Part shown: in pieces, positions 2,619 to 37,464 of the stretch | Numbering within the stretch: position 1 is the first letter of the stretch | How the letters are laid out: the number at the start of each line of letters is the position of its first letter | Assembly: GCF_030684315.1 (NCBI RefSeq) | Contig: NC_081369.1 | Coordinates: forward strand, 9,648,035-9,712,034 | Direction of reading: 5' to 3' | Origin: Stegostoma tigrinum | Lineage: Eukaryota | Length of the DNA stretch: 64,000 nucleotides | Translations under genes and position numbers: made by a program | The notes under the pieces: generated by a model | Seen by the model: only the letters and a program-made list of their open reading frames with translations | Database searches by the model: none | Told to the model about the DNA's origin: nothing

Positions 2619-5541
2619 ATATGTTCTATAACGTGGAGAAACATTTTGCAGCCATCTGAATACCCGAAGAGACAGACAGGATGTAATTGTGAGGCTACCT
2701 AAAGAAGAAAAGAAAATGGATAATCTAACCTGTCTTCAATTCCCACATTCTGATTGTGAATAAAGGCATGACTATAACTAGCATAAATTGGTCCTGAAAT
2801 GCAGCATAGATTTAAATTCTATGAACAGGAATTTCATTGTCAGTCACTTTTATTCGGATTTGTGCAAAAACAAAAGAAATGAGTAAATACGACAAATAAC
2901 CTGACATGTAAAAGTTTCAGCAATTAAATTAATTCAAACATTTCGTCAATCAAAGCACCCATACATCAATGTATGTAACAACTTCTAAAAATAATAAAAA
3001 CGACTCAGCTACAGTCATCTTGACCTTCTAATCCTGTTTGAACTTAGAATACTTTGAGTAAATTTGAAAGACGATGACGAACTAACATCCATTTCTGTGC
3101 AGGATGAAATTTGGAAAAATTATACTGCAAAGTGTAATGCAAACTGATTGTAAGCGAATTTTCCACGAAGAATTCATCTGTCTCAACTCAGGCACTTTCG
3201 TCACGTTCATATGTTCAATCTTTGCTTTCTCATCTCTATGGGATCTTAACACGCTGGCTTTTACTTAAAACAGCATTGCCCTCATGTACTTTTGAATTAC
3301 AGGACCTCAGAACATCACATGTCTTTATTTGACTGAGAAAATATATCAGGTATGTTTTTAACTGATATATTTTTTTTGATCTTTAAAATTCTATCTTACG
3401 CCCAGACAAATGTCACATTGATTGATCATCAGAATTATCCTCGAATGGTTTGTGTAGTGGGTGCTGTCTCTGAAGTTTGAAGCTCGCGAATAGACTCCCA
3501 ACTAGGTCAATATCAAGCTAACATTAACTTAGAGAAACTGCCAATATTTCTAACTTTTTTCATTGATATACCAATAGTTATTAAAATGTCATTGAATTTA
3601 GTGGAACTAGGACAGAAGACTTGATCTTAAATAAATATGCTATATTTCCCCACATTACAAAAAATATTAATTTTCTAAATTTACGCTCGCTTCGACTGTT
3701 ATTTCTAGAATACTCTTAGAATCAAGATTATTGTGTGTCTGTGTAACAAACATAAAAGATGATGAAGAAATTCAACAGATCTGGTAGCATATGTGGAGAG
3801 AGATGCAGAGTTTACTTTTCCATCCCTGTATGATGTTTCTTCAGAATTGGCCATATCAGCTCATCTCGTCTGCAGCAATTAAATCGATTAGTCACTCATT
3901 TTATTCTAACTTTCCAGCACCTGGCAACAAGTTTAAACAGTGTAGCGCTACAGGTGCAGATCAACCTTTCAAGATTTTCTACCTCAAGCAGTAAATTGTG
4001 AATGCGAATTCTAGGCCACATGATTCTCTGAGGAAAAAAAAAGGTTTTTCCTCGTGTCCACGCTAGCCCGTCGAACGATCGATCGCCTGAAATCTTTGCC
4101 CCCCCATGTCCAAACTCTTCACAACAGCAACGGATTCCACATCACCCCGCCGGTATTGCAGATATTTATTTTTAAAAAACTAATTTGAAACATCAATGAC
4201 AACAGTTTCAACATTCACTTTTCATTCAACATAGTTTTGCACCGAGATATAAACTCACATTTTTCAGTTTGAATACAATAACATTTTCAGGAATCGCTGA
4301 GATGGCAGTGAGTCATATACAACAGAAAATGCCACGTGACTTTTCTGATTGAAAAAAACATTCTGGGTACCTGGGCTTCCCTCGCAATTACTAACAATCT
4401 CGAATTGTCCTTGACAAATGTGATGCCTACTTAAACCCTTAAACTCCAATTAGTTTCGGTATGCGCATTCTACTGGCAAGAAAGGTATTCCAGGATAATG
4501 ACCTTTCCATAGCGAAGGAAAAGCCTCATAAATTTCCAATGCAGGGTGGTAAGATATGCTGATCTTTCCGAGGTGCCACCAATTCAGCTGCAGAGACAAA
4601 GTTAGAACTGACTCGAGCTATTTAAGAATGGAAGATTGCATTATGTAGCGCAGTCATGCATAGGAAATTAGTATTTTTTCTGCTCTGACCAACATCCAGA
4701 GATCTCCACACCAGTAGCTTTGAAGTCAATTTGATATAAGCTAATATTTACTCTTCTGCCAAAACTTAGCTTTTCACAAGAATGAAAAACATGATAGCAC
4801 CGCACCTAGAATCCATACCTAAAAGGAAAATAAAGAGAATCATATGAAGATAGCACAACAAATAGCTCAGTATTCTCTAACTCCACTCACAATTTTATAT
4901 TGGGTATCCTCATACCGCAACCACTGCAGCTTTTCCTAAAATCAATTCCCTGCCTCCTTCTTCACATAGCCAGTGATGGACGATAATTTCCGATCTAGCC
5001 AGCAAAATCTACCTCTTGAGAAAGACTTACAAAGAAATATACCAGATTAAATGACTCTCCATCATTGTAATTTGCACAGAGATCCATGGAAGAATGTAAA
5101 AGAGCACTCAGAAAATAGCGCATATGTGATGGATTATTCAGCCATGCAGAAAAACTTTAAAAGATAAAAGAAAAAATTTGCTTTGAGAAAATTATTTTCC
5201 TGGTCACGAAGGTGCAAATATTATTATGAAATTATACGGATCACTGTCTAGGGCAAACAATAGGGAAATAAGTAAAGCAGCTTGGTTGAAGTGCATTATC
5301 CACATATCAAGGGTTAATGTTGTGAATAGAACTCTTGTGCTCAATTTTATATTCATTCTACAGAGCAGAGAAGCATTCTTTGAAGAGTTTAGATATTAGA
5401 TGGAACAATAGCATGTCTATCAGTACAACGCTGACATACTGTAAATTTTGTGATCAGGTCTTTTTGAACAAATTAGAACGTAAAATGAGTTGACTTCCAA
5501 TCTTTTATTATCTATCTCGTGATAAAATTTGATCAGTTTTT

Positions 5542-6899: not shown

Positions 6900-7466
6900 A
6901 GTTAACATTTCAGCCTGTGTCTTTTCATCCAAGCTGAATATAATGATTCACATCCTAAATCTTCTATATTTCCATTTGGTAGCAAATGATAAATCGTACA
7001 TCTAAGTTTCTGAAATTTCCTTCTTAAGAAAGCATATTTCTCCATTGCAGCCTACCTATGCTACCCATGCTTTTGCTTTGAATGTGGCTTGCTGAATTAA
7101 AAGTGGTTGTGTTCCTATCCCTGGATTGTGAGGACCGGATTAAAGTCCCACGAGTTCCAGAGGTGGTTTTTAGTGGATGTGGGCGTCGCTGGCTGGCCAG
7201 TATTTCTTGCCATTCATAGTTGCCCTTGAGAAGGTGGTGGTGATCTCCCTCTGAACATCTCTAAACAGTTCCATATGAAAAATAGTTTTCTAAAAAAAAG
7301 TTAGAAAAGTGTTTTCTTACTTTCAATTGAAACTGTTTTTACATGGTCCACAATAATGCCTGTCAGTCCAAGAGTAATGAAGAAGCCCAGAGTAAATCGT
7401 GCAATCACAATATTATGGAAACTGTTCTCTGCAGTTCAGAATTAAAACAAACATATAAAATAGATG

Positions 7467-7707
7467 AGATGACAAGGTGTAGAGCTGGATGAACAAAGCA
7501 GGCTAAGCAGCATCAGGGGAGCAGGAAAGCTGATGTTTCAGGCCTAGACCCTTCTTCAGAAAAAAGATTCAGACTTTTTCTGAAGAAAGACCTAGGCACG
7601 AAACGTCAGCTTTCCTGCTCCTCTGATGCTGCTCAGCCTGCTGTGTTCATCCAGCTCTACACCTTGTTATCTCAGATTCTCCAGCAGCTGCAGTTCCTAC
7701 TATCTCT
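7467..7707. mobile_element. Short non-coding hairpin element derived from Penelope termini
   Basis: About 100-bp inverted arms; degenerate 15-bp TSD (7452-7466 vs 7708-7722, 12/15 identical). Confidence 0.8.
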
Positions 7708-8883
7708 CATACGAAATAGGTGTATGCAAGGATTATCCGTTGGGCACAACTAGGATTCATTCATAGAAGTGAAATAGGTCAACTAACAAGCTAATCTCAA
7801 GGATCTCGATTTTACATTGCTGATACTGCATTTACAAACATTTGCCAACAATATGCTCTGCTAAATAAGCACCATCTCATTATCTGCCATGATGTAATCC
7901 AGTTTACAATATCATTGGTGTTCGGTGTTAGCACAATTTTCTGAGGCTGTTGGCTTTTCTTCAATTTGTAATCGTGGTTCTGTGATGAACCACGACCATG
8001 AACCTGGACACTGTGTACACTCTAGCTCGTGTCATTAGCACAAGAGATGAATGGGTATTGTTGGAACATCATCCAAACTTTTCATTCCGGGTAAGAAAAG
8101 TACAGGTATTCCTCCATAACATGTAAACATAAAATGGTACTTGACAATTCTACTTCTGAAACTTACTGCTTTACAATCGAAACATCTGATAATCTGGCTT
8201 TCTATATACTATGCTGTCGTCGGTACGCTAAATGTATCAGAATGATATTTCCCAATTTTATCCCACGTAGATGTCTCTCATGGCTGATTCACTCTTCCTA
8301 AAACAATTTCTCTAATTTTGACAGGTAATTTCTGCCATTCTATCAGTTCACACTAGCAGTGCTAATAAATTAATCCCGTTTATTAGAATAATGAAGCTAT
8401 AACCTTAATTGCTACTAGAATCGAGTTAGGAGAATGTCTTCAAGTCTGAGTCATTTACAATGACTCAAAAAGAGAACAGGAAACCAATGAATGAAATAAT
8501 TCCAGATAAAAGAAGCTGTTTTCAGGAGGCATGTGTGCAAGAGAAACACATTAATCATGATCACTGGTATGATTCAGGGAGGCAATGCCCTTGAAGGATG
8601 TTGGTTAAAGTTCTACGCAGGATCTGCAAAATTATGATATGATGCTTTTTAAGCATAACAGGTGCATTTGATCAAAAGCTTTCAACTTTTTGCGAGCGTG
8701 AACGTTTCTGATTTATTCCAAAAATATGTTCCATACTTCAACTGCAATTTATCTTCACACTTTTATTAATATTTCATACTTTCATTGAGAGTGAACACAA
8801 CCCATTGTCCTCTGCAGAGCCACATTTTTACGAAATCACACAGGTTGAAGTGGGTGCTCCACTGAAAATATTTCTAATCTTAC

Positions 8884-9179
8884 CATTACTGACAGTGTAG
8901 CTGATACTGACAGGCACCTTAAGACAGACGTGAGATACCTCGCATGTATAAACTACAATGCTATGCACGGGCTGTGCTTCTTCCAAAAAACTGGAAACTT
9001 CATAAAGCCCATCTACAGTCTTATTTTTCACAGTTTCTATTCTGGCCAGAATTTCGACACCATTCCTTAGCCGGGGATTCCCACATTGTTCAGGTAAAAG
9101 TCAATCATTCTACACTCGACTTTTGGAGAAGTCACTGACGACCTTTCAATAAGAATAATTTTCAACTGACTTGGGGGAA
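8884..9179 (-). pseudogene. Gene A C1 exon with a 1-nt deletion
   Basis: VPPSQLKII..VECRMIDFYLNNVGIP[frameshift at W]LRNGVEIL..KTVDGLYEVSSFLEEAQPV..YTCEVSHVCL. Shares GLYEVSS and CxVSHVxL with the gene B C1. Confidence 0.88.
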
Positions 9180-10257
9180 CTATAAAAGAAAAAGAAAAGT
9201 TATAGTTTTCATACGGAGGAGTGTAGTAGCATTTGTATGCCTGAGTGTCCCTTACATCATGACTGTGACAAGGGTAATCCATTATACTGCTCATCTTTCC
9301 TTTTGTTCACATTTTATAATCATTACGAAAATGCAGCAGATTCTTGCACTAGCTAAGATCAGCAGCAATGATTCCAATTGAATTTCTCTCCAAGTATATC
9401 AGACAGATGAGATCATAATGCGTGTGGAGTGGAACTATACTTTTATTTCCCTTTATGGCCCAATTCATATTAGAGATTTTATATATTTATTTAAAAACAA
9501 AGGCCAATTTCAAACACTTCATATAATATAGACCTTACGTTTTTTGCATGATTATTGAGTTGGCCGAGATACTTTCAATGCCTACGAAGACTTCAGAATT
9601 GATTATGAAAAATGCACTGATTATCGTTTGGCCATTATAATTGAGCACAGACATTTCTATGCCTGTGGCGAAGCTTTCACATTGTGGGAGTTTTACCAGC
9701 AAAATATTCCTACAGTCTAGGGAGCAGATACTGATCGAGGGCTGTAACATTTGTCACCTCATGAAGATGTTTTGTTGACAGTTGTGTGCCACTGGATAGA
9801 AGCTTACCAAACTCTGAGAAGCATGGGTTATAGCGATATGTGTGACAGCATCAGGTGGAATTGTTATCTCAGGGAGAGACCATCATGCTGCAACTGGCAC
9901 ATTTGCTCAAGCACCAAAGCAAGATACTCACCTTAGAGCAGCGTGTTCCCAATTCGTGGCTTGTTAACCAGTTTGTTAACAACTCAGCTCCCAAGATTTG
10001 CAATGTTTCTAAATTGCATTCATAATTTAGGTGCCTGGGAAACTCGACATTGTGACCACAGCAACTTCTTGCTGAGTATAACTAGTATTCTGTTTGCAAT
10101 TAACTCAAAGTTGGGCAATTAGCATGAACTTCATTGACATGCACCAAAAGCACCAGCTCAAGGACCCCACGTCTGCAGACAGTGGTGCCCAACCTCCACC
10201 AGTCTCCAGCAATCCTCAGTGACACATCTCTGATCTAATTACAGGATACTCTTGCAC

Positions 10258-11405
10258 TAAAAGCCATACAGAAACAGATCTTCCATCCAACTCGTCCATA
10301 CCAACAAGTTGTTCTAAATAAATCTAGTCCCATTTGCCACCAATTAGCCCGTATGCCTCTAAAGCCTTCCTATTTATACACCCGTCCAGATGCCTTTTAA
10401 ATGTTGTAATTCTTCCCATCGTCACCACTTTGGTTGGCAGGCCATTCTATTCACACACCACCCACTGTGTGAAAAAGTTGTCCCTTAGATCCCTTTTGAT
10501 CTTTCCCCTCTTACCTTCAAGGTAAGGCCTCTACTTTTAGATTCTCTCACTCTGGGGAAAACAACCCAGTTGATTTACCCTATTCATGCCCCTTACGATT
10601 CTGTACACCTTTATAAGGTCACCCTCAGCTACCAATACTACAACGAAAATAGCCCAATTCTATTTGGCCACTCCCAATAACTCAAACCCTCCAACCATGG
10701 CAGCATCTCTGTAAATATTTTCTGAACTCTTTCAAGTTTCACAACGTCATTCCTATAACAGGGAGACCAGAATTGCACATGATATTTGTGGCATGGTGGC
10801 TCAGTGGTTAGCACTGCAGCCTCACAGCACCAGGGACCCGGGTTCAATTCCCGCCTCGGGTGACTGTCTGTGTGGAGTTTGCGCATTCTCCCTGTGTCTG
10901 CATGGGTTTCCTCCGGGTGCTCCGGTTTCCTCCCACAGTCCAAAGATGTGCAGGTTAGGTGGATTGGCCATGCTAAATTGCCCGTAGTGTTCAGGGGTGT
11001 GTGGGTTATAGGGGGATGGGTCTGGGTGGGATGCTCCAAGGGGTGGAGTGGACTTGTTGGGCTGAAGGGCCTGTTTCCACACTGTAGGGAATCTAATCTA
11101 AATATTCCAATAGTGGCTTAACCAATGTTCTGTACTGCCGCAGCATGACCTGCCAACTCCAATAATCAATGCACTGATCAATAAAGGCAAGCATGCCAAA
11201 TGCCTTCTTCATTTTCCTGCCGAACTTTGATTCCAATTTCAAGGAACTATGCACCTGTACTCCAAGGTCTGTTTGTTTAGTAATACACCCCAAGGCTTTG
11301 CCATTAATATCGAAGTCCTGACCTGTTTTGCCTTTCCAAAATGCAACATATCACATTTATCTAAATTAAACTCCATCTGCCACTCCTCCGCCCATTTATG
11401 CAACC
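10258..11405 (-). mobile_element. CR1 3' fragment interrupted by a SINE
   Basis: KWAEEWQMEFNLDKC, LVKPLLEY and VQFWSP..LERVQ remnants flank the SINE. Confidence 0.85.
10787..11100 (+). mobile_element. tRNA-derived V-domain SINE (HE1-like), full length
   Basis: A box TGGCTCAGTGG (10797-10807), B box GGTTCAATTCC (10841-10851), V-domain, AATCT-repeat tail, short ATATT duplication on both sides. Confidence 0.88.
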
Positions 11406-13193
11406 GATAATGGTGCTTCAATGTTGCACCTAAGGCCGCACCAGCGAATAAGAGATATTGATATTGCAAGGACACTTCATGCTTTCCGAGACATACCCAT
11501 TGCTTGTTGTTGGCAATTGCGGACCAGACTCACATGGTCTGATATAATGGCCTCCACTGCTTGTTGTGGAAAAATGATTATCTGGCACTTTCGGCATCTC
11601 ATTAGCAGGATCTGCAGGACCACACGTGCTAAAAGGTGTCAGATTTACTCACACCTGCCATGCCCGTGACAAATATAAAGAGCGGTACAGGGAAGCTTTA
11701 AACTGACAGTACTTGTCCTTTCAAATATGGTGCATGAGATGCTATTGAATTCCAGGGTTTGGGTGAGTGGCCAATCACTCTGGGATTGGCCTCTGTTAGC
11801 GTGAGAAGGAAATAAGGCTGATTCTGGCTGCGAGTGTCCAGTTAGCAATTAAAACAATGAGTTTGGAAAGATATGGTGAAAAAATTTCAATTTGCCTAAA
11901 AAAGATAATCACTCCAAAAAAGTTGACAGTACTCATGCTTAGCCAAACAAAATATGTTTTTGCCTATTATTTAATTGAATGTACTAATAAATAGAAGGAA
12001 TATTGAGTCATAAATTAAAACTTATATTGCATGTCTAGTTTATTTTCAGGATTCTTACATCGTCATTCATTAATTTGACGATTTGTACTTTCATACAATT
12101 ACTTTGCTGGCTTAATCTGCTGTGAAAATTTTAGGTTGCATTGATTCCTTAGTTAATTATTAAATTTCTTAACCATGGGTCTGTTTTAGCCTTCACATAT
12201 AATGCAATTGATTGTCCATGAATGAGCACATTATTTTGAACTCACTTGTGTCATTTGTGTGAGGTTTGGGAATCTGATTGCATATCATGAATTCTAACTA
12301 CCAGAACAATGCCTTCACAGAAATGCTGAGTGAGATCTTATGTTAAAGGAGAAAACATTCGTGAGTGTATGAAAAACAGCCAAAGCATCCTTTGGCAGAG
12401 ATTCACAGAAAGGAGCAATGTTCACATTCAAAATATGACATGTTCTAGGACGTGGGCTGCAAGCCAGCATTACCATCAATATCAACACCTGCCCTCTGTG
12501 TGGTTTGTAGGATTTCTTTTCTTTACTGTCTCAAGCATGTAATCAATGGATACACGTGTACTGTGAAATGCTCAAAGATAAGAGCCAGAATAGTCCATTT
12601 CATCCCTGAAAAATGTACTGACATTCATTTAGATCATTTTTGATTATACCTCAATTCTGGTTGGATGACATAATTTGACACCTTTAACGTTGAGAACGAA
12701 ACAAAAACTTCTCCGGCTCATTTTTCAGTCATTTGGTGTTAAAAGTTATGCATTGGAAACTGCAAACAGTGAATTGAAATGCAAGCTGCTTCATGAAATT
12801 TTCACGGCTGTAGCAGGAGATTTCTACTCTGAGGTCGTATTGTGTCATTGATTGTGGTGCGTTGAAATAAATCAATAGTTCATAGAACATACAGGAGATA
12901 GTATAATAATTCGAATTTTATCATCTTATTAGGAAGGAATCTAGGCATCTTCTCCTATTGCTTAATCTTAAACGTGGGTATACATAGTTGTCCTGTTTGC
13001 CTATCTTGCCTCACTAATGATTGCAATTGCAGCAAAAAAGAGAACCAATGAAGGTTGCAAATCGAAGTCGATCAAAACCCCATCAATGTGAGATGAGTTC
13101 GCTACCATCAGTTTTTTTTTCTAGTGATAAATCTCAAACCTAATTTATTACACACTGTCAAAATGCTCCTTTCCCTGGAACAATGAGACTTAC

Positions 13194-13481
13194 CGCACAC
13201 AGTCAACAACGATCCACTTCCAGCTCCAATGATGGTCTTCTGATGCTTTATTTTACAATAGTACAATCCAAAGTCTGCAGCAGTGACATTGAGAATATGA
13301 AGTGAGCTCCTTTCTTTCTGTACATGAAATACCTGTCTTCTGCTGGGTTTCAGAAACGATTCTGCATCGATTCTCCACCAAAATACTTCAGGAGCATTTT
13401 CAAATATGAGAAATGTACAGAACATGGAAACATTAGCACCTCTGATGGTCTTCAAGTGTTTTGGAACTTTACTCGATGTCA
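13194..13481 (-). CDS. Gene A VJ-type Ig exon (open frame)
   Basis: Canonical B-strand Cys, WW, DxGxYYC and GxGxGSxLxV; phase 1-1 splice sites. Confidence 0.9.
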
Positions 13482-15749
13482 CTTAAGTTGGTGCCAGAAA
13501 AAAAAGTAAAGCAGCGATGAAAGTTGCATACTTCGGAGAAAGTAATGCATGACACGAAAAAAATGCAAAAAAGGCAATGGAGAAGTATGTACATCTAATT
13601 GGAGAGTACAGAACCCTGAATGGAATTAAAAATGAAATTCATATGAAATAAAGATGTTGAATTTAAGCTATTCTGATCAGCAGCAAATAAATTTTAATGC
13701 TACCTGGCCATACTATAATCAGAATAAACTTGAGTTGAACTACAGTTCTCACTGGCTCATTGTAACATTAAATAAAGTTAATTAGCAACTTGCTTAAATC
13801 GACTGTCATGCTCTAAATGGTTGGTTTGAGAAATGAGTTTCGTAGATTAGTATAGGAAGTGTGTCACCAAGGCATGAGAAATCACGTGATGAGCATTATA
13901 TAATCTATCCTGGTATCTTGAGCATTGTGGAAGTTGGTGGCTCCCTTCTGTTGCTCGCTGAGAAGCTTTCAGTCTGAAATGAATTTTTTTTACCAGTTCA
14001 TGTGGCACTTTATTGCAACAATCTTCCCTATTGACACAGAACATTGAATATTGTCTGAATGGTGAAAGTATCATCTCTGTTTGCAGGTATAGGCAGCTGT
14101 TAAAGGGATATTTGGCCCTGGGCACTCCGCTTTCTGTCTGACCCTGATATTGAACAGTGTTCCTGCACAATTTATTTCAGAAATCATAGGATATCAATTA
14201 CATTCAGAATTGTGCTCGTTTTAAGCACCCAATTCACTGTTATAGGCACTATGCAAAAAGTCCTGATGTAAAACAAGCAAATTTTACGGAACTGTTTGTT
14301 GATACCTGCAGACAAAACTGTAGTTGAAAGCTAACGAGTTTAACCTTTATTTAGTTGATTGCAACAGGGAAGCCGATTTCAACAGATCAAAAACATTCAT
14401 TTCGGCTCCATCATGCAGCATGTTTCATTTCTCGAACTTCCTTTGCTGCGTGTAAATTGATCCTTATCAGAATTCTGACATTATTCAGGAGTCTTGCTTC
14501 CAACCACGTCCATGTGAGCTTAGTAAAATTTTGGTAAGAGCAGGGCCAGTGTCAGTAATGCCAAATGTGATAGCAGTTTAGTTAAGTGCAGAGAATAAAA
14601 GTGCACAAATCTTGATTCATATCTGAAGTACGCAAGTGAAACCCAGTCTCCCGTATAAAGCAGTACGCAATACTATCCTTCTCAATTTTTCCCATCGCTT
14701 GAGACGTGGTGACCGACAGGTTGAAACTACCGTCAGTCAACTATCTCTAATAATAAAGCAGCCGTATGGTAAGGCTATGGCAACTTAACCTCTTACCAAA
14801 TATGGCAAGGTTAATTCATGAATGATTTAGGCAGCAGAAGAGTGATTGCAGGCTAGTTTAATGCATGTACAAATGAACAGATTGTAAATTGAGCACTTTC
14901 AGCAAACATATTTTCATCTTTAGTTTGCTGGTGGTTTTTGAGTTAATCGATTTGCCACCAAATCCTTGAAGTTTACTGGCTACAGAATGCATCACTTTTC
15001 GTCTTCACAGTACGTGCCACGTTCAACAATTTTTGGTTAGCACTGGGGCCACGTGTACACCAGAAAGAAGGTGATCCATTTATTTTATTGTTACTTTATT
15101 CTTGAGTAGCTACAACGATTGAAATAATCTGAGTGTTTTAAAATAGCATTTCAACAGCTGCAGTGTCAGGTTAACAGTGAGCAAGTATTTTCATGTCTTG
15201 TCATGTTCACAAAATAGTCATCAGTTTTTGCTAATCACACTTCATGCTTCTTTTTAAAAATGTTTTTGAACTGATTTCAAATTCTGATTTCCACTTCATC
15301 CAATGACAATCTTACTCAAACACTTCTCTGATCATTCTTCGTTCAGATAACAGCAGGTCAATGTTTTGACAATTTCACAGTCTCAGCAGTGAACCTGTGA
15401 GTAAATTATTCTTGTGAAAACGTATATTGGAGGATTCATCATATACGTCATTTTAAGAGTGTCTTAGATTTCATTTTTATGTCAATGTAGATCCATTCAC
15501 CATTGATACTGTGCTGAATGGTGCTTGAAGCAGACAAAACATGTGGAACATCATCATCACCACATCAAGCATGATTGACCAGTGGAATTTGCAGCTCTTG
15601 AATCCTGCAATGTGCAGATAGGAAAGATTTTTAAAAAAATATTCTGTTTTTTTGTGCACATTAAGTCCTGGGACAGGATTCAAACCAAAATGAAAATGCA
15701 GCCATTCACAAGACATCACAAATTCTCCCGGAGGAAGGCAGCAGAGTGG

Positions 15750-19225: not shown

Positions 19226-22200
19226 CAGTCTCCAGGTGAGCCAATGAATTGAAAAACATCTATATGACAAAGTCAGCCTATTCATACCGTCACTCATAAG
19301 CATAGGTTTCCACTTAGAGCTGATTACATTCCCCTGCAGGGAATTTAGTCCTCTTGCAGATGTTGGTGGTATTTCCACTTCACTGGCCCCATCATAACAT
19401 TAACCCATACTTTCATGTCTTCCACCTGAAGTGTTCACAACTTATTTAAAGAATCATTGGTGCAGATTATTTGAAGAGTGGCATTGCATTGAGATCATTA
19501 ACCCAATTCTTGACGATTACAATAAAAAAAACTCTACCTCTCTCATAGGACTCCCCACCAGGCTCCTTAACATTCGGTAGTAATTACTATCACACTACTC
19601 ACTGGCTTATGGGACATGAACCCAGGTTTTATGATTCAGAGGAAGGGACTCTAGCACAATGCAACAGGATATTGAATGTGTGCATACATATTGTAAAATG
19701 CTTCTGTAGAAGGGCAGACTTGAAACTGGAGCAATTTACTTAATTCAAGGGATAATGAAACTGCACCACATGGCCAAGGTGGGCCATATTTTCTATTTGA
19801 CAGTTCCCCATAGTGGAGGTTAGACGGGGGAAGATAAACCACGCCATATTTTCACAGTAGTCAGTTGATGTATTTTGCGAATAACTGTCCAGCATTACTG
19901 ACAGCTACTTCAGCAACTCCCATGAAAGTTTAAGTAAATTAGCAAAGTGTGAGATTTGATTGTCAGGAACGTGGGTATCAGGAACATTACCCAGTAGAAA
20001 AGCTGCTGGTTGGGTTGGGTGTGAGGATGTCACGAAGACATGCTGACAAGCAAGTAGGGTGCAACATGTACAGAGTGCGAGTTGGTTATGGTGCCACTTG
20101 TAAAGGAAAGATGTTAATAGTTAAGCAGAGAAAAATGTGATTGGGTGACAAGTCATAGTGTGTCGCATCGGTGCATGGTCAGGATGCAAGCAGGATTCCA
20201 ATGACCTAGGTATATCTGGTGCCAGGTAGGCAGACTTCAAGGTGCCTATGGTCAGATTGCCATATAGGTAAGGCATCTGGTAAATAGGATTTAAGTTGTT
20301 ACAGTGTCAAAGTGGAAGGTCTAAAAAGGACAGTTAATGGAGTGATAATTCGGTGGGAAAGCAATATTGTGTTTGGAATGGTGTGGTTTCAGGTCTCATG
20401 TGAGAGACAATTATTGGTTTCCTCAAGGACAATGGTCTCTGAGCGGATGAGAAACACTCTCAGAATACTGTGTCATAGGGTATCAGGTTCTGGGTGCAGA
20501 AGGATTGGTGAATCCTTGGATTGTAGGTGTTTGATCTTGATAGTAGGGGACTTGAGCTGCGTGTAAAGTCCTAAGTCAAGAACACAATGTTGGCTGGCAG
20601 GGCGCTGGTGTGCCCCAAGACAAAGTTAATTGGTACGGTGCAGAGACGAGGGCATTAGTGTCCCAGCCTCTGGAAATAGTGTGATTTTGCCATGGAAGGA
20701 TAGCAGTGTCATGCAGTGGCAGTGGGTGATTTGCGACCGGAAATAAGGGGTGTTTCAAGCACCAGAGCTTGAAGGGAGAGGTTGTGCTTGGCTCCATGCA
20801 AGCGAGTCAAGTCTGCTCCTATGATAACAGATCTTCATCAGACCTTGTGGTGTCGGGGGTGTTGGAACCAACATAATGAATGAAGTATTTTGGGTTCTGT
20901 TGAGGGTGGGTGCTTTCTGGTCTAGGATTGAGAGCTATTAGATGGCAGGTGAAAAGACTTTGTTCTCTCTGGTGAAGAGTGGAGAGTTTAGAGTTCAATG
21001 GTGGGTAGTATTCAAAGCCAGGAGGGTAGAAAGTTCACAGTTCCCTTCGGGATGGGAGAGGTCAGCTGCTGAGTAGAAAGGAGACGCGCTTGGACAAAGG
21101 CTGAGAATTCTATACTGCTGCATCCTGAATCCTTATACCTTAAATTAACCAGGGATGCGAAGTGGCTTTTCATTGCATTTTTTTCAGATTATATGTTAAT
21201 GTATTTTACAGCACTTTAAGTTGAAAATCATTGTTCCTTGCATTAAATGGTGTGCAGATACACAAGGCCTCATTGACTGTTCTACCTTCTTGTCCATGCC
21301 CAGTGACCCAAATTAAGGATGGTAATATAAGGGGTGTGACTGCCTGTTGAATCATAGCGCCAAGGTAACTCTCGCCCTCTGTGGTGTGTAGTAGGGTTCA
21401 AAGCTCAGACTCCAGCCCATCAACTCAAGCAACTAACACTTGTTACAGATCATGTCCTTCTGAACTGCTACAGAGTCCACTATCTCGAACTCCATTCAAT
21501 TGCAGCACATTTCTGACGCTGAATCTCTGTTTCGTTTTATTGTTATTTAATGTATTTATTATATTTTCGACTCGTATTTAGTTCTACAATTTCTTATATT
21601 AACATTTTAATCTAAATTCAACTTTGAACACGTATTTCAATTCGTTACTTATCAGCGAATATACTTACAATTTTCCTATGATGTGTTATTGTGAGAAAAT
21701 TCCTGCATTCTGGCTTAAATCCTCGAAATGTTTCTTATTTCTACTCCAATCAGTTGCTTCCTGTTTCCGCATGTTACCTCTTGGATCCCAAATCCAACTA
21801 CCGCTGGATTCAGTGATGGCCAGTTCTGCTCCCGCTGCTGTTCCAATTGAACTGGGTCTTGCCTTACCCTTCAGGCTTTTATCTGGAAGCACTTCTGGTG
21901 CCGGCCCACCCCAGACCTGGTTGTGCTCTGGCAGAGCTCCTCAACCACATAATGATTCGCCAGCTGTTCACCACCGATCACCATGCTTGTCGCACTGTCC
22001 TTTGTCGACATGAAGCAAAACTGACTCCAGAAGTATCAGGAAATTCAGCAGAAGAAAAAGAAAATCATTACTTCGTCTTACGCTGCAGTCTCCATTACAA
22101 ATGTAATTCTGCATATCAATTCTTGAGGCGGTTAGAACATTCCACTTAACAAAGCACAATTTGAAAACCCACTCTTGCCGGATGTGAAATGTCATTGTAA

Positions 22201-22291
22201 CGTCACTGATTAAAAAAAAGAAACGCCTACCTATCTTTTCAATCATTGCACATTTGCATTTGCAGCAGAGAATCAACAATTTGAACAAAAA

Positions 22292-22346
22292 ATGGCAACG
22301 AGTATCATGCTTCTTTGCGTAATTTTCCGGGGCATCATTCAGACAG
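22292..22346 (+). CDS. Gene B exon 1, signal peptide MATSIMLLCVIFRGIIQT
   Basis: ATG in the context aaaATGG, hydrophobic core, phase-1 donor ACAG|gtgtca, 172 nt upstream of the V exon. Confidence 0.75.
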
Positions 22347-25300
22347 GTGTCAGTTCTTTTTTGTTATCTTTTGTTCATTTTTCCGATTTCTTTTTATCTA
22401 TACAGCGTACGAAGCACTTGCTGCGTTCACCTAGCTAACTACAATTTATCAATCCAGATACGTTTTCACCTTCATGCCTTGTCTAATGCTGTTAAATGTT
22501 TGATTATATTTCTGATAGCTGCGGAAGACTCTTCATTCACTGTGTCTCAAGCACCTAAAGAAGCGAAGGTATTCATAGGACAGAATGTCACCCTTTACTG
22601 CATTTTTCCGCTGTCTCCAGACCAAACCTGGGTACGGGTATTATGGTGGAAACATGGCGAGAATGAATACTTGCGTACAAGCAGAGACAAGAGAAAGAAG
22701 TTTGGCATGGAAGGTAAGGCAAGCGGCTTCTTTCAGCTGCTGGAAGCAACAATCCAAGACGCTGGAATCTATCACTGCACCGTGATCCGCCAAGGAGAAG
22801 TTAGAGGAAACGGAACCGGATCACATTTAAGGGTGTATGGTTAGTTCGAAATATAGGAGAACAAGACTTGCTACATTATATTAATCAGGGATGTGAAGTG
22901 GTTATTCATTGCATTTTTTTCCAGATAATATATGTTAATGCATTTTACAGAACGTTAGTTGGAAAATCATTGTTCTTTGCATTAAACGGTATATAGACAG
23001 ACAAGACCTCAAGCAGTGACAGTGTGAGGATTTGGATGCGAGTTTTACAGTTGACTTTTGACTCACTCAATAATGGAAATGTTAGCACGCGCTTGGGTGT
23101 CACCTCACTGACGTTCAATTAATATAACACAGACAGGCTGTGTCGCTGAAACCTCCCGATGTTCAATTGAACAAAATGTATTACTCCAGTTGTCATGCTC
23201 TGACAGACAGCCATGCCGGCACAATTAAACCTTTTCATTTTCCACCAAGAACGTGTACATCACTGCACCTGATTAGCTATCCAACTTGTTCACCAAGGCC
23301 TACACCTCGAAATGATGTAAACTAAATGCTTGTTCGGAAGTAATTGCCTCTCATGCGGGGAGGAATTCTAAGCTGAAACTTTACAGATTGATAATGTGCA
23401 TTCATTTCTAATGTGTGATTCGTACAAGGCATGGCAATTAAAAAGGATAGGAATTTAGAGTGAAATCACTCTATAGTGAAAGAGTAAAGCAAATTAAATT
23501 GTAAATTAACTTTTTTTCTCAATAGTGTGCAGTAACTTGACTATGCGTTTGTTTTTATTCTGTGATTTGCAGCCGCCCCAACACCACTAACCATTGTCGC
23601 AGGGCTATATAAAGGGAATTCTTCGACGTCTCTGACTCTAAAGTGTGAAACGGCCGCATTTTATCCAGAAAATTTCACCCTTACTTGGTATAAGAATGGT
23701 ATTGAAACTGCATTTGGAATAAGTACCAGTGAAGTCAAAAACGCCGAGGGACTGTATGAAGTTTCCAGTTCATTGGTTGAGACGCAACCTGTCCTCATTG
23801 ACATGAATTATAGCTGTTCAGTATCTCATGTCTCCCTCCAGACGCCAGCTTTTGCCACCCATACAGTGTCTAAATCTAATCCAGGTATGACAGCAACAAC
23901 TTAAGAAGTTTACACGTGTAGTGTTGAATTCATAGCTACAACACACGCCGAGCTATCATGAAGACAGTCCAGGGAAGCATCGTGAGAAGTATCAAGTGCA
24001 CTAAATCCGTGTTTTTGGCTAGAATTCAGTCTGGGCGTACCAAAACTGATGTGTTTCTAGATACTGAAATAGGCTTAGTTCAACCAGCCCTTCCGTCTAA
24101 ATTCCTTTATGGCAGACGCAGCAATAATAAACAAAGTTTCTACTTCCCATTCTAATATTTCCTCACTCGACTGTGGCTGATTTTTTTATAATCTGGGTTT
24201 TATGCTTATGTTGTGTTACATTTTACCTGTGTCCACCTTTTCCTTCTTGTATGAGGATTAACATCGGTAGCGTCAGACATTTTTTTGCGAAATGATTTTT
24301 TGTAATGCGAGTTGCGATACTGCCCCAAGTTCTACTGCTTCCTGTGCAGAAGTCTGAAATTAATCGTCTGGTGAACTTCAATTACCAAGTTCTCAAAATG
24401 TTTAATGGGGATGTAATTCATGATTTCCATTTAAACTGTGCCTGCAATTCGCTACAGTATGCTCCAGTCAATGCATTGCGTTTTCAATGAGCCTCAGTGA
24501 GGAAATCGATCGGCTTTTTTGTACCCAAGTCTCTCATGGATAACAGACATCGCTGCAAAGACAAGCATTTATCGATTCATTAGTTCATTTATGAGGGTAG
24601 ATAAGAGACGCAATATTTGTGTTATTTCCTGCTTGCCTCCAATGTTGTTTGGAAATCTGGCCAGTAGTGTAAAGGGACCATAACAGTATTGGCTTAATTC
24701 TCATACGACTAAGGTTGCCAATATAGGACTCTTTTCTTTAATCGGTCCCCCTGCCTGAGGCAGGTCACCTTCAGTTTAAACAACCTCCAGAGTGATTTCT
24801 CCCGAGTGATGGAACAGCCTGATAAGACTATCGTGACTTTATTGTCCTTACAGTGTCGTTCTGGTCCTGGTAAATATAGTTAAAATACCAAAAGATGATT
24901 TGTAATCGATTGCTGCATTTCAGAACTTTTGTTTTCAAGGAAGAAATGCTGCTCAAAAATTCTCCAAATTTCTTTCTACGATAAGGAATTCTAAGAGTTT
25001 GCTCTTAGAAGCTGTTTGCTGAAGGAAACTTGATTTACCTCACATTTTAAATCCCCATAAAACTTGAAATCCTTAAACCATAGGCCTATTCCAGGTATGA
25101 AAAGAAATTTCACATTTTCGAGGAAGAATTTATTTCAAGTAGGTTGGCTACGAATAGTATTTCGAATTTATTCATTCTTAATGCAGTTAACTAAAATGCG
25201 GAGTGAAACTGCCAGTGTAAACAATTAATTGCCTAGGAGACAAATTTTGTTTCAGGTTCTCCACTTCTTGCTCATTTGTGGGATTTAGGTGTCACTGAAT

Positions 25301-27177
25301 GGGCCCACATTTATTATCCATCTCTAGTTTCCCTTTCGAAGGTGGTAATGACCTGCCTTCTTGATATACTGCAATCTATTTGCTTTGTGCACCCACTTAG
25401 CCATGAGGAGGGGCGTTTCTAATAATTTTGTTTTCTCCTAATAATCGTGCAGATAATGATCAGAAGCCACGTTATTTTTGGATTCCAATTTTTGCGGTAG
25501 CTGGCAGTGTATTCCTTGTTTTTCTGATTGTCTTTGGAGCGTGGTCTCTGCTGAAGAATAATAGAGGTAAAACCTATTTTAAGTCTTTGATGTTATTATC
25601 AATAATCAGAATGAAAGTCAGCTCTTGGGTAACAAAAATGGAAATGAAGTTTAAGAAGAATTGAAGTTGTTGAGAATGTTTTGTTTTTTACTTGGGGGTG
25701 TGGTTGGAAGGCTGGCAAAGACTGTCCTAAATGTGCTTGTACCATAAAGCCTTTCCAATTTCAATCAAAATGGAAATAATCAGCAAGATTTGTTTTAAAG
25801 AAACAGCTTTGTGATCTAATGAACGTAAGATATCTTGATAAAGCATTTTCAAAATCTCAATTCACAGCTACGATTAGTTTCAATGTGCGATTGTGATGAG
25901 GGTATGAGTGGCAGTGTGTATTTTAGAAACTGATGTAGAGGTAAACCATAAACCCAAAAGCGAAATTATCATGTCTAGTCCTCGATTTAAAATAAAATCC
26001 CCTCTTACACTACGGTGTGCTAGATATCTACAGTTTTTGAAAGGTAACCTTGAAATAAAAAAAAACTGGTTCATCATTATAAGCGGTAGTATATAAAAGT
26101 CCTCACATTGCAGATTTAAAAACCGTGTTCGACATTTTTCTGACTTTGAAATTGCAATCTCTGACATTAAAGCTGTGTAACTGTTTCTTTTTACATCACG
26201 TTTCATTCGTTTCTGGGTAAAGATGACTCTGTAGCAGGAGCGAACCACGATAAGGAGATGGTATGTCAATTCATTGATGTTGAAATACCCTATCAAGAAA
26301 TAATATTGTGGAATATTAATTTCACAATTAAGGCGGTTTAGCTTAGTTTAGTAAAAATGTTGACAAGCCTCACTAAGATAATCAAGTCAGACATGGAAGT
26401 TATTTAAAGTTGAAATTGCTGGAGAAACGTCACAGGTCTGCCTGCATCTGTGCAGAAAGAACATAGTTAACGTTTCGAGTCCAGAGACTTTCTTCAGAGA
26501 ACTTTAAACTTATTTTATGGGCATTTATTTGCTACTTAGTGTGTTGCTGTGGAACTCTGATACGTTATAAGAAATTAAAGTCACTAATTGCACTGAAAAT
26601 ATTCTTATGTGACAATGTTTTTCTATCCTTTATAATTGAAAGGAAATTTCAATTCATGACACTTAGTTTGATGTAAACATTCCCATAGCACTCATGTTGC
26701 ATGAGCGTTGATAGCGTATTTACTTGGTACAGCGCCCCGACTATATCACATATGTTTTCTGGTCAAGGAACTATGATTTGCACAAGGAAGCTGCTAAGTA
26801 CAATGGAGTTGCCGACCAAAAAAAGGCATTTGTTTTTGTCACCAACGCACAAACATGCCACGGTGCAAGCTTGAAGAGGTGAAAATTGTGTCCGCTTAGG
26901 TAGGTTTGAGTAACAGAGCCGAGAAACAAAGTGTAGCATCACCATTCGTGGTAAAGGTCAAGATAAATTCATACAGATTTTCCAGTATATTGCCTCGAAA
27001 GTCATTTGATCATCTGTTGAATGCTTTGAAACAGCATTCCGAAAAATGTGAAAAACGCCTTTTTAACAATATGTTCGAACAATGGTCTTTCAGCATCAAC
27101 AAAGTGTAACTGGTGAAGATGTGACATACGCGATTGTGTCGACAACTTCCTGGGGGAGAACTGGACAATGCATCTAA
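22292..27177 (+). CDS. Gene B: intact 6-exon IgSF inhibitory-type receptor (leader-VJ-C1-TM-ITIM), 307 aa; NKp30-like V plus SIRP/antigen-receptor-like C1
   Basis: join(22292..22346,22519..22839,23573..23884,25453..25566,26223..26260,27094..27177) = 924 nt with no internal stop. All introns are GT..AG with matching phases 1,1,1,1,0, as is typical of IgSF genes. Confidence 0.88.
22519..22839 (+). CDS. Gene B exon 2, VJ-type Ig domain
   Basis: tag| acceptor. Translation includes VSQAP, NVTLYC, LWWK, DAGIYHC and GNGTGSHLRVY. Phase-1 donor G|gttagt. Confidence 0.95.
23573..23884 (+). CDS. Gene B exon 3, C1-set Ig domain (missing from the ORF track)
   Basis: tttgcag| acceptor. Translation includes LTLKCETAAFYPENFTLTWYKNG, NAEGLYEVSSSL and YSCSVSHVSL (CxxxxFYP, W and YxCxVxH motifs). 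Donor CAG|gtatga; 312 nt. Confidence 0.95.
25453..25566 (+). CDS. Gene B exon 4, transmembrane segment
   Basis: DNDQKPRYFWIPIFAVAGSVFLVFLIVFGAWSLLKNNR: uncharged hydrophobic helix, cag| and G|gtaaaa, phase 1-1. Confidence 0.88.
26223..26260 (+). CDS. Gene B exon 5, short cytoplasmic exon DDSVAGANHDKEM
   Basis: Pyrimidine tract plus aag|, donor ATG|gtatgt. Phase 1 to 0 links the TM exon to the ITIM exon in frame. Confidence 0.7.
27094..27177 (+). CDS. Gene B exon 6, cytoplasmic tail with ITIM (HQQSVTGEDVTYAIVSTTSWGRTGQCI*)
   Basis: tctttcag| phase-0 acceptor. VTYAIV (27121-27138) matches [VILS]xYxx[LV] and is preceded by acidic ED. TAA stop. Confidence 0.8.
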   Translation, partial: HQQSVTGEDVTYAIVSTTSWGRTGQCI

Positions 27178-30020
27178 AGAAACAACTCAGTATGCTCAGC
27201 TAAGGACAAAAACGCAAAGTGTTCTATCAGTTTCAAAGCATGTGCACTGTGAATGCACAACGATTGAAGAATGCAGCCCACAGTGTTGATGTGTAATTGT
27301 TTCAATAACGTTTTTTAAAAAGAGAAACATACATTTCCTGACATATTTTAACGTTAAGTAATATTTTACCCAGCCATGTTTCTTTCTTTGACTGCAATAG
27401 ACAGCAAATTTGTTGCACAAGATTATCAGTATGAATGAAGTCAATCCGAAAATATTATGTACTAGTTGGAACAATTTAACGATTGGTGTTTTTTTTGGTT
27501 GAGTGATAATCTCAGTGAATTTATATATTGGCTATTCCTTTGAAGCAACTGTTCCCTTCACCTCCCGAATTTAAACCGATTAACATTTTCCCCAGAGTGT
27601 GACCTTTCCCTTTTCCCTATCAAGGATGCATGAATTTATACTTTGTAATGCAATGCATTTTGTTATTTACAATATCGAGTGTGAGCTTTTTTTTAATTCA
27701 ATGCAAGTGGCGACTGTTTCTTCACCGTCATCTATGTTCTTTGATGTTACTTCTAATATTCCCGTTTGGGAAACAGAATACACTCTGCCTTGTTATTGAA
27801 ATCCTGATAATTGGACTTGTTTAGCTCTGCTAACTACTATAACCTTTATCTCAAAGGAGCAACAAAAATGCGAATAAACGGCTATGCATCAACTGTCAAT
27901 ATGTCGCAGTTTCTTTTGAAACTTTCAAACACGTGAGCACTTCCATCTCAAAGAACAAGGGCTGCTGATACATGGGAATAACACCATCTGCAAGTTCCTG
28001 TCCAAGTCACTCACCATCCTGCCTTGGAAATCTATCATATTTCAAATGTTTTACGTTATAGCGTACTTACAGCAATCTTTAACTTCTAACTTTGTTCTTT
28101 CTTTCTACATTGTTCTTAAAATTTCATACCTAGGCACTTGTATTGAAGATTGCACCCATCTGGTGACATTATGCACTTTTCACTGTACTGTACGTTTGCT
28201 TTTGAGTATACGTGGCAATAAAATCAAAAAATCAACTCACTGGTCCTTCAGTGCTATTGGGAAACGTTTTGGAATTTCCTCCAAAATAGCTTTGTGTGTG
28301 TATTTACAGCACACGGACTACAGCCTTTCAAGAAGGCAGCTCACCACTTCTCAATGGAAACTTAGGGATGAGCTATAAATGCTGGTCCATCCAGTGATTC
28401 CCAAATCGCACGAGAGAATTTTAAATGGAAGGTTTACTTAAAATTTCACGTTTTCACTTCCAAAGACGCAGGTGTTTCAAAATGGAAACAAAATAAATTC
28501 GACAATTTTGGTACGTGATTAATTTAAATAACGACACTTTATTCACGGAAGATAAAACACAATTATGGTAGTTGTCTAGAATTTTACATAGGACTGGGCA
28601 TCAAGAGCTAAGGGCTCATCCCCAACTGCAGTGGAAATGCGTTATTGGACTTTGTAAACCACCGCAGTCGTAAGGCCGCATTAAAAGAGCTGTTAGCGTG
28701 GTACTTCAAGGATTTTGACCCAGCAACATAGAAAGCCTTTGATACGTCATGAACGACCAGATCGTGTTTTGCAGCCTTCTCGTTTTAGCTACAGGTATGC
28801 ACCTGCTAAATATCAGCAAGAGCAATTTGCTTAAACAAATTTACAGTTGAACCGTTTCAATCTTATACAAGTGCTTGCATCTCTGTTCTAAATTTAAATA
28901 TATTGCAAAAGTGTGGGCGCACAGAGCGCCAAATAGCTGCTGTTATTTTGTACGGTGTATCTCAGTATAATTAGAATAGCCGTTAATGATCATCTTACTA
29001 TTACACTTTTGTCAGTTTAACTTTCCAACTGCATTATGCTGCAATTGGGGATAGCAAAATAAACTTTTTTGTCTTACCGCAAACACTCTTCTGTTAATTA
29101 TGCACGGACAAGTACAATTAAGTGTGTAAATTTCCAACTTAAATGCATTTTCTTCAAGAGTTAAAATATTGCAAGATGAATCTAATTAGCCTACAACTTA
29201 CAACGTCTGGATATTTCCAAAACGTGGAGACAGCTAGGGCAGTAAAACAGTTTTGGGCTACTTGACTGTGAAACTAAACATTTTAAGACGAATATTGCTA
29301 AATATGTTTGTTCCTGTCGTCATGTTGCATACTGTGGAAATGTAGTTTCTTGGTGGCGAAGGAGCAGATGTATAAGACCATCTTGCTATCTCATTTCGAA
29401 CGCATCAGAAAATGTTATTTTCTTTTTTGCGTTCATGGGATGTGGATGTAGTTAGTAAGGCTCGCATTTCCCCCCATTTTTATTTGCCCATGAACTAAGT
29501 CAATTACTGGGCTATTTCATGGACCTGGTATCATCAGCCTGTCTGCCCTTTGAATGTAAACAAGCAAGGAAAATTGATGATGTTCACAGTTCAATTAACA
29601 CTGATATTATGCAGCCCACACTGGTGTTTGTGGTGCAGTGGTAGCTTTTCCGCTTCTGATCCAGGCAGCCCGGGTTCAAAGTCCGACCTACTCTGCAGGT
29701 GTGTTAAGATATCTATGTTGCCTGTGCCATTGGGCATCTATGTGTACATCTAGGGTTATCCTCCGGCATGTCACCCACCTTTGCGCAGTCTACCGACTGA
29801 TGCAGGCATCGCATACCTTCTGCCGCATTGCCCGATGCGAAGATCCCTCTCCACTGCAGAGTCCAGAGACACAACTTTCTGTGGAAAACATAGTCTGGTT
29901 CTTCCTGAACCATCCACTACTAAGGGCTGACGGATTTAATAGAGCAGCTAGTAGCATTCAAAGCCCAAACGCATTCTCATGCGTGTGGCAAAAATTCTGT
30001 ATTTAGCCAATGCTTACCAT

Positions 30021-36389: not shown

Positions 36390-37464
36390 ATGAGACTGGA
36401 AGTGATGTTGCTGTTTGAACTTGGGGTCATTGTCACAGTTAGGTATTGCATTTCTGATTGTCCGAATCAGCACTACATTATATTTATCATATTTTCTGTA
36501 CATGATTTGATATCGATGCCACTGAAACACCACAACAAGGATAACCTCGGGTGCTTTTAAGAGTTGTGTACAGAGCTTTACAGTAAATATTAAAATGGTG
36601 TATAACTTCAAAGATGGCGCAATAGAACATCGGCAACAAAGTCTCCTGAACATTATTGTTTCCTCGTGACTTACCTCATACAGTTAGATTGAATTCAGTT
36701 CCATTCTCACTAACTTTTCCCTAATGGATTTTTACACAATGATAGAGCCCTGAGTCACGACGCTTTGCATTTGGCAGATCCAAGAAACTACTACCTTTGT
36801 TTTTGAGACAAATATTTTTGATGTTATCTGTTCCTGTTTGCATATATTTAATCTGTTTCGTTTCCAACAAGGTAACTCAATTGCTAAAATTATCATTAGA
36901 AAGGGGAATGATACAGCAGAGGATGATGTCGGTACCCCTTTAGATAGTTGCCTCTTTGGGATGTTGAGATATCCTGGTGGGAGTAGCTGTCGTATGTATT
37001 ATAGAATAAAGCTGCATATTAATTAATTGTATTCCACGCAAAACCAGACACTTAAGGGCACAACTGTACATGGAAATATAAAGGAGAGATAAGATGTCAA
37101 AGGAGCAAGCTATATTCAATTCAAGTGATATAGCGATGAGGTAAGATCTCTAGTTCTTAACGAGATGTCTGAGAGCAAGAGTAAGAAGATACCTGTGTAA
37201 ATTTGTTGCAGCAGCAACAAGACCATGAACAGCAAGATTACAGTGACCGATATTCCGAACCAAAGTTTCAACTGAAGTCTGACTGCGCTCATTTTGGTTT
37301 GCTGCCGACAGAGCGTCAAAAGATTGTTTATCCTGAAACTCGCAGTTATGACATTTGGCATCTTATGTTTTGCGTTCCACGACAAAGAAACGGTTTTATT
37401 GTATTTATTCTGCTGTTCAGCTGATCTTGAAATCAAGTGTGACATCATCGACAAAAATAGCCAG
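36390..37464 (+). pseudogene. Gene C: decayed paralog (leader-like exon, V remnant, possible stalk/TM and cytoplasmic remnants)
   Basis: MRLEVMLLFELGVIVTV|gt at 36390-36442. V remnant 36872-37140 reads VTQ, CRYPF*LPLWDVEISWW, LHIN and DT*GHNCTWKYKGEIR (gene B: DAGIYHCTVIRQGEVR) across stops and frameshifts, and ends at AG|gtaag. Confidence 0.55.

Follow-up and report, generated by a model that had tools for sequence, protein, structure and literature searches.

A Stegostoma tigrinum VJ-C1 gene with an eroded tail as a likely member of a clustered, paired-type receptor family of cartilaginous fish

Results

Structure of the VJ-C1 gene

We analysed a 64,000-nucleotide stretch of Stegostoma tigrinum DNA (the window; assembly GCF_030684315.1, contig NC_081369.1, here C19, positions 9648035-9712034) and focused on a forward-strand gene at window positions 22292-27177. 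An earlier interpretation made from the letters alone (the sequence-only reading) had described it as an intact, non-rearranging receptor gene with a V domain, a C1 domain and one ITIM (immunoreceptor tyrosine-based inhibitory motif), in the architecture proposed for the pre-RAG ancestor of antigen receptors. Its six-exon model was reproduced exactly, with GT-AG boundaries and compatible phases giving a 307-aa product. The exons encode a leader peptide similar to the leaders of relatives (22292-22346), a single-exon V domain with a partial J-like G strand (22519-22839), a C1-set domain with 73% identity to the Heterodontus protein P0003 (23573-23884), an uncharged transmembrane (TM) segment (25453-25566), a short cytoplasmic segment (26223-26260) and the last part of the tail (27094-27177).

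Both ectodomain calls were borne out by Pfam, and each exceeded its cut-off (V-set, E=1e-7; C1-set, E=3e-9). By sequence reading the C1 exon carried the C1 hallmarks listed in PMC2785349, namely FYP, 13 residues between Cys and Trp, and xVxH. In the modelled reading frame the uncharged TM and a single ITIM, VTYAIV, were confirmed, the latter fitting the consensus quoted in PMC12151841, and the count of five NxS/T sites also held. The J-like motif was only partly as described: it reads N-G-T-G-S-H-L-R-V, so that GxG is retained and F/W is replaced by the Asn of a sequon. No site resembling a recombination signal sequence (RSS) was found on either strand of 22200-23600, around the V exon. These features support a predicted non-rearranging VJ-C1-TM receptor with an ITIM.

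The V domain is short, with 59 residues between the cysteines versus 65-74 in the rows for immunoglobulin (Ig), UrIg and a gene on contig C60, and its predicted structure (predicted local distance difference test, pLDDT, 92) lacked the C' and C'' strands. Fold searches with this model tied VNAR, NCAM, T-cell receptor (TCR) V, NKp30 and CD79b at Z 13-14 and were thus non-discriminating; SIRP was absent among the fold matches listed, which says nothing against SIRP. Logan contigs of sequencing run X1, which may be the assembly's own sample, matched 22200-27700 without a difference. The V and C1 exons were open, and the V exon showed no indel in a second organism (organism B). The end branches of the gene in the V and C1 trees (0.15 and 0.17) resembled those of its nearest relatives, indicating that the ectodomain is not visibly decaying.

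The gene belongs to a clustered family of cartilaginous fish

The sequence-only reading missed the membership of the gene in a large paired-type family. As lower bounds, and counting exon matches rather than genes, all 49 matches of a genome search with the V exon lay on C19, as did 47 of 49 with the C1 exon; 38 V and 37 C1 matches were stop-free. On C19 the V matches fell at 2.1-3.0 Mb (22), 9.18-10.26 Mb (26) and 13.7 Mb (1), and the C1 matches too lay mainly in the first two of these intervals. Outside this genome, V relatives at 65-67% identity were present in the sharks Scyliorhinus and Heterodontus, and a search with P0003 matched 33 proteins, 32 of them from chondrichthyan species and one with an incomplete name. 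A profile run against 1.84 billion representatives added many further matches. The best 150 were considered, beyond which bony-vertebrate members may exist; all 20 family-type representatives looked up came from a shark, ray or chimaera. The family predates the split of sharks and chimaeras. Ten multi-domain profile matches (scallop, white shark, manta, turtles, lungfish and lizards) were looked up and set aside as other proteins. The relatives bear scattered automatic names: SIRP-like, tapasin-like, B7H6-like, MHC class II beta-like, CD276, NCR3LG1-like and Ig lambda-like. Three family models (P0001, P0035 and P0036) showed V-V-C1, C1-V-C1 or V-C1-C1 layouts, being either real variants or fused annotations.

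A TM segment followed the C1 domain in 73 of 105 related proteins, a set that includes isoforms and partial models. Among these 73, at least one motif of the ITIM or ITSM (immunoreceptor tyrosine-based switch motif) type occurred in 43 and at least two in 29, many relatives having two to five, and a spaced YxxL...TxYA pair was found in 24. Five of the TM-bearing relatives had an Arg near the TM start together with a short tail. On C19 the tail is built from a short exon, a two-tyrosine exon and a last exon with two further tyrosines, and the contig holds about ten tyrosine-tail genes and two open-frame Arg-TM exons, one of them in a minus-strand paralog inside the window. Two TM exons of zeta-type adaptors were found in the genome. 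The layout of paired receptors of the Ig superfamily, with related ectodomains, either ITIM tails or a charged TM with a short tail, and clustering of the genes, was found here.

We suggest, with a probability put at roughly 0.7, that the gene belongs to a clustered family of VJ-C1 membrane proteins of cartilaginous fish that do not rearrange and likely serve as paired immune receptors, inhibitory and activating, and that the eroded tail of this copy would leave it at most one ITIM. Several points weigh against this interpretation. Thirty of the 73 TM-bearing relatives were motif-free, some of them surely truncated models, and the tails derive from automated gene models and from our own exon reading. 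The tree alignments comprised about 100 columns with reference labels partly assigned by eye, and they were built without human SIRP or NKp30, NITR or PRARP sequences. In addition, 9 of the 13 listed differences from organism B in exons 1 and 2 change the residue, so that purifying selection is not shown thereby.

The tail of this copy is eroded

The claim that the gene is intact did not survive examination of its 3' part, where a frameshifted last exon, a pseudoexon and the loss of the usual exon-5 acceptor were found. As read in frame, the last exon (27094-27177) encodes VTYAIV, with its Tyr codon at 27127, followed by frameshifted sequence up to a TAA. Downstream, at 27185-27202 on the same strand, lies the remnant of a second, ITSM-like motif, TQYAQL, recognised by alignment and by a tblastn match to protein P0006 that falls into two pieces, each in its own frame. 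The distance between the two Tyr codons is 64 nt, against 69 nt in three paralogs, and this net 5-nt deletion puts TQYAQL (Tyr at 27191) out of frame. A forward-strand pseudoexon at about 26768-26899, with its donor conserved at 26900, is what is left of the first of the family's tail exons with two tyrosines; reading from both acceptors tried met stops. Compared with four paralog exons, its best match scored above 300 of 300 shuffles, two scored above 298-299, and one was not significant. Organism B had 75 letters where the pseudoexon region of the window has 25. Exon 5 (26223-26260) uses an AG acceptor lying 6 nt downstream of the position that is usual in the family and that reads GG in the window (26215-26216) and AG, with an exon of 41-44 nt, in five paralogs. 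Skipping of exon 5 into 27094 would lose the ITIM frame. The Mustelus model P0007 also lacked the middle tail exon but kept both last-exon tyrosines. More tyrosine motifs are the family norm, and the single ITIM reflects an eroded tail rather than an intact single-ITIM gene.

An assembly error behind the frameshift is disfavoured, as the X1 contigs agree with the assembly, although such contigs drop rare alleles. The piece 26849-27670 showed 19 gap letters in organism B (two studies), every one at 27188 or beyond; no indel was present between the two tyrosines, and a 9-nt loss removed the QYA codons of the second motif. On this evidence the frameshift looks older than the split from that organism, and we regard it as probably real and old. 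A single-ITIM protein would need both the shifted acceptor and skipping of the pseudoexon, which is possible. Our tentative first choice for the fate of this copy is expression with a single-ITIM tail as a weak inhibitor; expression with another tail or none, as a decoy, seems slightly less likely, and so, to the same degree, does a decaying pseudogene.

Phylogenetic position and genomic neighbourhood

In the V tree the family formed one side of a branch with support 100/98 (29 rows), or 99/99 in an earlier 35-row version that was lightened by dropping eight rows; the C1 tree gave 100/99 (34 rows). In the 29-row V tree the V domains labelled NCR3-like, SIRP-like, UrIg and Ig/TCR were joined on a branch (97/93) from which the family was excluded. 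In neither tree did the family nest in the SIRP-, NCR3-, UrIg- or Ig/TCR-labelled sets, which agrees with the earlier statement that the gene is no clean orthologue of NKp30 or SIRP. Of the labels, P0157 and P0189 were SIRP-like by source name and P0165 and P0187 by eye; the NCR3-like label of P0164 and of the exons on C44, and the B7H6-like label of P0155, P0147 and the exons on C20, were likewise given by eye. The B7H6-like V rows formed a separate branch (100/98), and the window gene has GxG, unlike B7-type V domains without a J motif. Multi-C1 genes that look B7H6-like by eye are clustered at C20:34.19-34.48 Mb.

We considered whether the family might be the chondrichthyan branch of SIRP, with V-C1 in place of V-C1-C1 and relocated to another chromosome. 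The majority of the automatic names were SIRP-like, the nearest ESM clusters were those of SIRP-alpha (0.96), SIRP-alpha was the fourth match of the family profile against PDB, and the genome yielded no better SIRP candidate. The spacing of the paired tyrosines is also reminiscent of SIRP-alpha. In approximately unbiased (AU) tests a sister relation to SIRP was not rejected for C1 (p-AU 0.38) but was borderline rejected for V (0.048). With a mean identity of 22%, C1 was no closer to the SIRP-labelled domains than to those of Ig, MHC or UrIg (23-24%). A lungfish SIRP-like V domain gave four genome matches, none on C19. In human the SIRP region lies with NSFL1C/SNPH at 20p13, whereas the SEP and syntaphilin markers were found only on C23 and C5, not on C19. 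Activating SIRP-beta has a TM Lys, as opposed to the Arg of the shark family. On balance we consider a SIRP origin unlikely. A search for the CD47 family, made without a working control, found nothing.

Alternatively, the family might be PRARP/VJC1 expanded in sharks, or a sister group of NKp30 that bears a C1 and already has a name in the literature. PMC10751288 cites PRARP and the tetrapod VJ-C1 genes as non-rearranging VJ(-C1) genes and, with NKp30, as proposed relatives of the antigen-receptor ancestor. Sisterhood with NCR3 was not rejected for V (p-AU 0.075), nor was a C1 grouping of the family with a VJ-C1 set on C14 (0.42), and NKp30 was among the tied structural matches. Against this, NCR3-like V exons lie apart, with 13 of 14 matches on C44, the contig of the MHC (major histocompatibility complex), and the C14 set is the more TCR-like candidate. 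We hold this explanation to be quite improbable. The NCR3-like V exons of C44 number at least 13, at 11.26-11.94 and 20.24-20.32 Mb. The C14 set (31.99-32.14 Mb; L146, L165 and L166) consists of further single-exon VJ, C1 and TM genes with a V domain like TCR-alpha (E 5e-8), has an exon of a zeta-type adaptor about 2.2 Mb away, and is a candidate PRARP/VJC1 relative.

A third sister relation tested for V, with turtle multi-V proteins, was likewise not rejected (p-AU 0.41). These proteins (P0087, P0116 and P0122) have short V domains, P0087 with an Arg-TM like the activating members, and they are possible tetrapod relatives. On C60, at 8.48 Mb (L129:997-1896, minus strand), one open frame of 300 codons encodes both a C1-like domain and a V domain whose J motif, FGNG, is canonical; this contig also bears Ig light-chain-like C exons.

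The sequence-only reading had suggested the MHC and its paralogons as places to look for synteny, and C19 proved to be neither the MHC contig nor a PBX-marked one. All 36 MHC class I matches lay on C44, the PBX genes on C10, C37, C44 and C45, and Ig/TCR/UrIg-type C1 exons on contigs other than C19; the minor paralogons (human 12 and 14) were covered only via Ig/TCR positions. Next after the main cluster come AMFR and BBS2 (Pfam G2BR and BBS2_hp), and before it lie exons that look KIAA0895L-like and EEPD1-like by eye. We take AMFR, BBS2 and KIAA0895L to map to human 16q, and EEPD1 itself not to. No flanking gene was identified within 50 kb of the 2-3 Mb cluster.

The proposal that the window gene is a relic-like form of the pre-RAG antigen-receptor ancestor can be judged from these data. 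It accords with the single-exon V with GxG, the genuine C1, the lack of an RSS-like site around the V exon, and a family age beyond the shark-chimaera split; UrIg2 was moreover the top PDB match of the family profile, a score summed over several C domains. On the other side, the V domain is short and falls outside the branch uniting NCR3, SIRP, UrIg and Ig/TCR, the locus is off the MHC, PBX-marked and Ig/TCR contigs, and the tail is eroded. TCR similarity was weak: the window gene matched 51 PDB sequences, with contactin/PD-L1 best, versus 324 for a C14 single-exon VJ-C1 gene, with TCR-alpha best. A special closeness to the ancestor was therefore not borne out, and we find the relic proposal highly improbable. 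This copy is likely a weakened member of its family and not a relic of the antibody ancestor.

Other features of the window and of C19

Upstream of the gene and divergently oriented, at 7313-13482 on the minus strand, lies the activating-type paralog, likely a pseudogene, with V at 13198-13482, a frameshifted C1 at about 8870-9175, and a TM exon with Arg and short tail at 7313-7429. Two minus-strand fragments come from other paralogs, a broken V exon with three stops (36679-36975) and a broken TM exon (58967-59071). Fragments of reverse transcriptase of the long interspersed nuclear element (LINE) type (e.g. 692-2698, minus strand) and short interspersed repeats occupy much of the window. Elsewhere on C19, nearly identical V/C1 copies are spaced at intervals of about 78 kb within 9.22-9.61 Mb (9.30, 9.38, 9.45, 9.53 and 9.61), representing a recent segmental duplication or an assembly repeat, and an isolated family member at 13.678-13.689 Mb (L179 and L180) has a divergent C1 without FYP and a tyrosine-bearing tail.

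Discussion

Our data show how the gene is built, how large its family is, which kinds of tail occur and how this one is damaged, where the family stands in the trees and which genes lie next to it; the mechanism that we infer would run as follows. The V domain would bind a cell-surface or microbial ligand, with the C1 domain acting as a stalk. Src-family kinases may phosphorylate the tail tyrosines, and SHP-1/SHP-2 would dock on the ITIM and ITSM-like pairs and damp leukocyte activation, by analogy with SIRP-alpha and PD-1. In short-tailed members the TM arginine may pair with an adaptor of the FcR-gamma/CD3-zeta type and lead to activation, and the family would turn over by birth and death. 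PMC12151841 reports that the tandem motifs of PD-1 act jointly, so the single remaining ITIM of the window copy predicts weak inhibition.

We conclude that the family is ancient, SIRP-like and of the paired type, and that it appears not to have been described before. More broadly, and tentatively, cartilaginous fish may possess an undescribed family, more than 400 million years old, whose about 40-50 paired VJ-C1 receptors are encoded outside the MHC and its PBX-marked paralogons and serve as their main multigene natural killer (NK)/myeloid system of self-versus-non-self recognition, a functional counterpart of KIR/LILR, SIRP and NITR from a separate VJ-C1 lineage. If so, it would offer ligand screens direct targets and would supply, for the oldest jawed vertebrates that have MHC and antibodies, candidates for leukocyte receptors of the inhibitory and activating kinds. 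The family adds a lineage to the few C1-bearing proteins, with VJ-C1 genes expanded outside MHC regions, and the scattered automatic names of relatives would be corrected. The window copy alone is of lesser weight because its tail is eroded.

No description of the family was met in the titles and abstract openings of the literature searched, and an earlier description elsewhere is possible. A term search found no mention of SIRP in the elephant shark paper and one of its supplement files or in the main text of the whale shark paper. The origin of SIRP is placed at Tetrapoda in PMC13262535, in contrast to the lungfish SIRP-like proteins that turned up here. The ancestor idea has already been published for SIRP, NKp30, PRARP, NITR and UrIg: besides the paper cited for NKp30 and PRARP, SIRP is among the proposed relatives in PMC2785349 and further ones are listed in PMC11599192, and UrIg/UrIg2 are proposed as non-rearranging VJ-C1 relatives in PMC12227049.

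Compared with known systems, the shark family resembles NITR of ray-finned fish in its large cluster, its single-exon VJ, the prediction as NK receptors and the proposed link to the antigen-receptor ancestor (bioRxiv 2021.06.11.448072), but its second domain is C1-set, unlike the NITR I domain with a J-like end. It shares a non-rearranging VJ and C1 in sharks with UrIg/UrIg2, which differ in having 3 C1 domains and a secreted form (UrIg) or at least 9 C1 domains (UrIg2), in linkage to the MHC/antigen-receptor complex (PMC12227049), and in forming no ITIM family. The window gene differs from Ig/TCR in its lack of an RSS-like site, its TM and ITIM tail, and its position outside the Ig light-chain branch. 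With SIRP-alpha/beta the family has in common a joined VJ-type V, a true C1, clustered paired receptors and spaced ITIM/ITSM-type tail tyrosines, and it differs in having one C1, a shorter V, another chromosome neighbourhood, a separate V branch, and TM Arg rather than TM Lys in activating members. Similarity to NKp30/NCR3 lies in a VJ encoded by one exon, its G strand containing NGT, and in the Arg-TM of activating members, whereas the window gene has a C1, an uncharged TM and an ITIM tail and lies off the MHC contig. PRARP and the tetrapod VJC1 genes, reportedly the subject of Fu 2019 and Ohta 2019, were compared by description only; they share the non-rearranging VJ-C1-TM layout and an inhibitory motif, while the shark family comprises dozens of genes with activating members among them.

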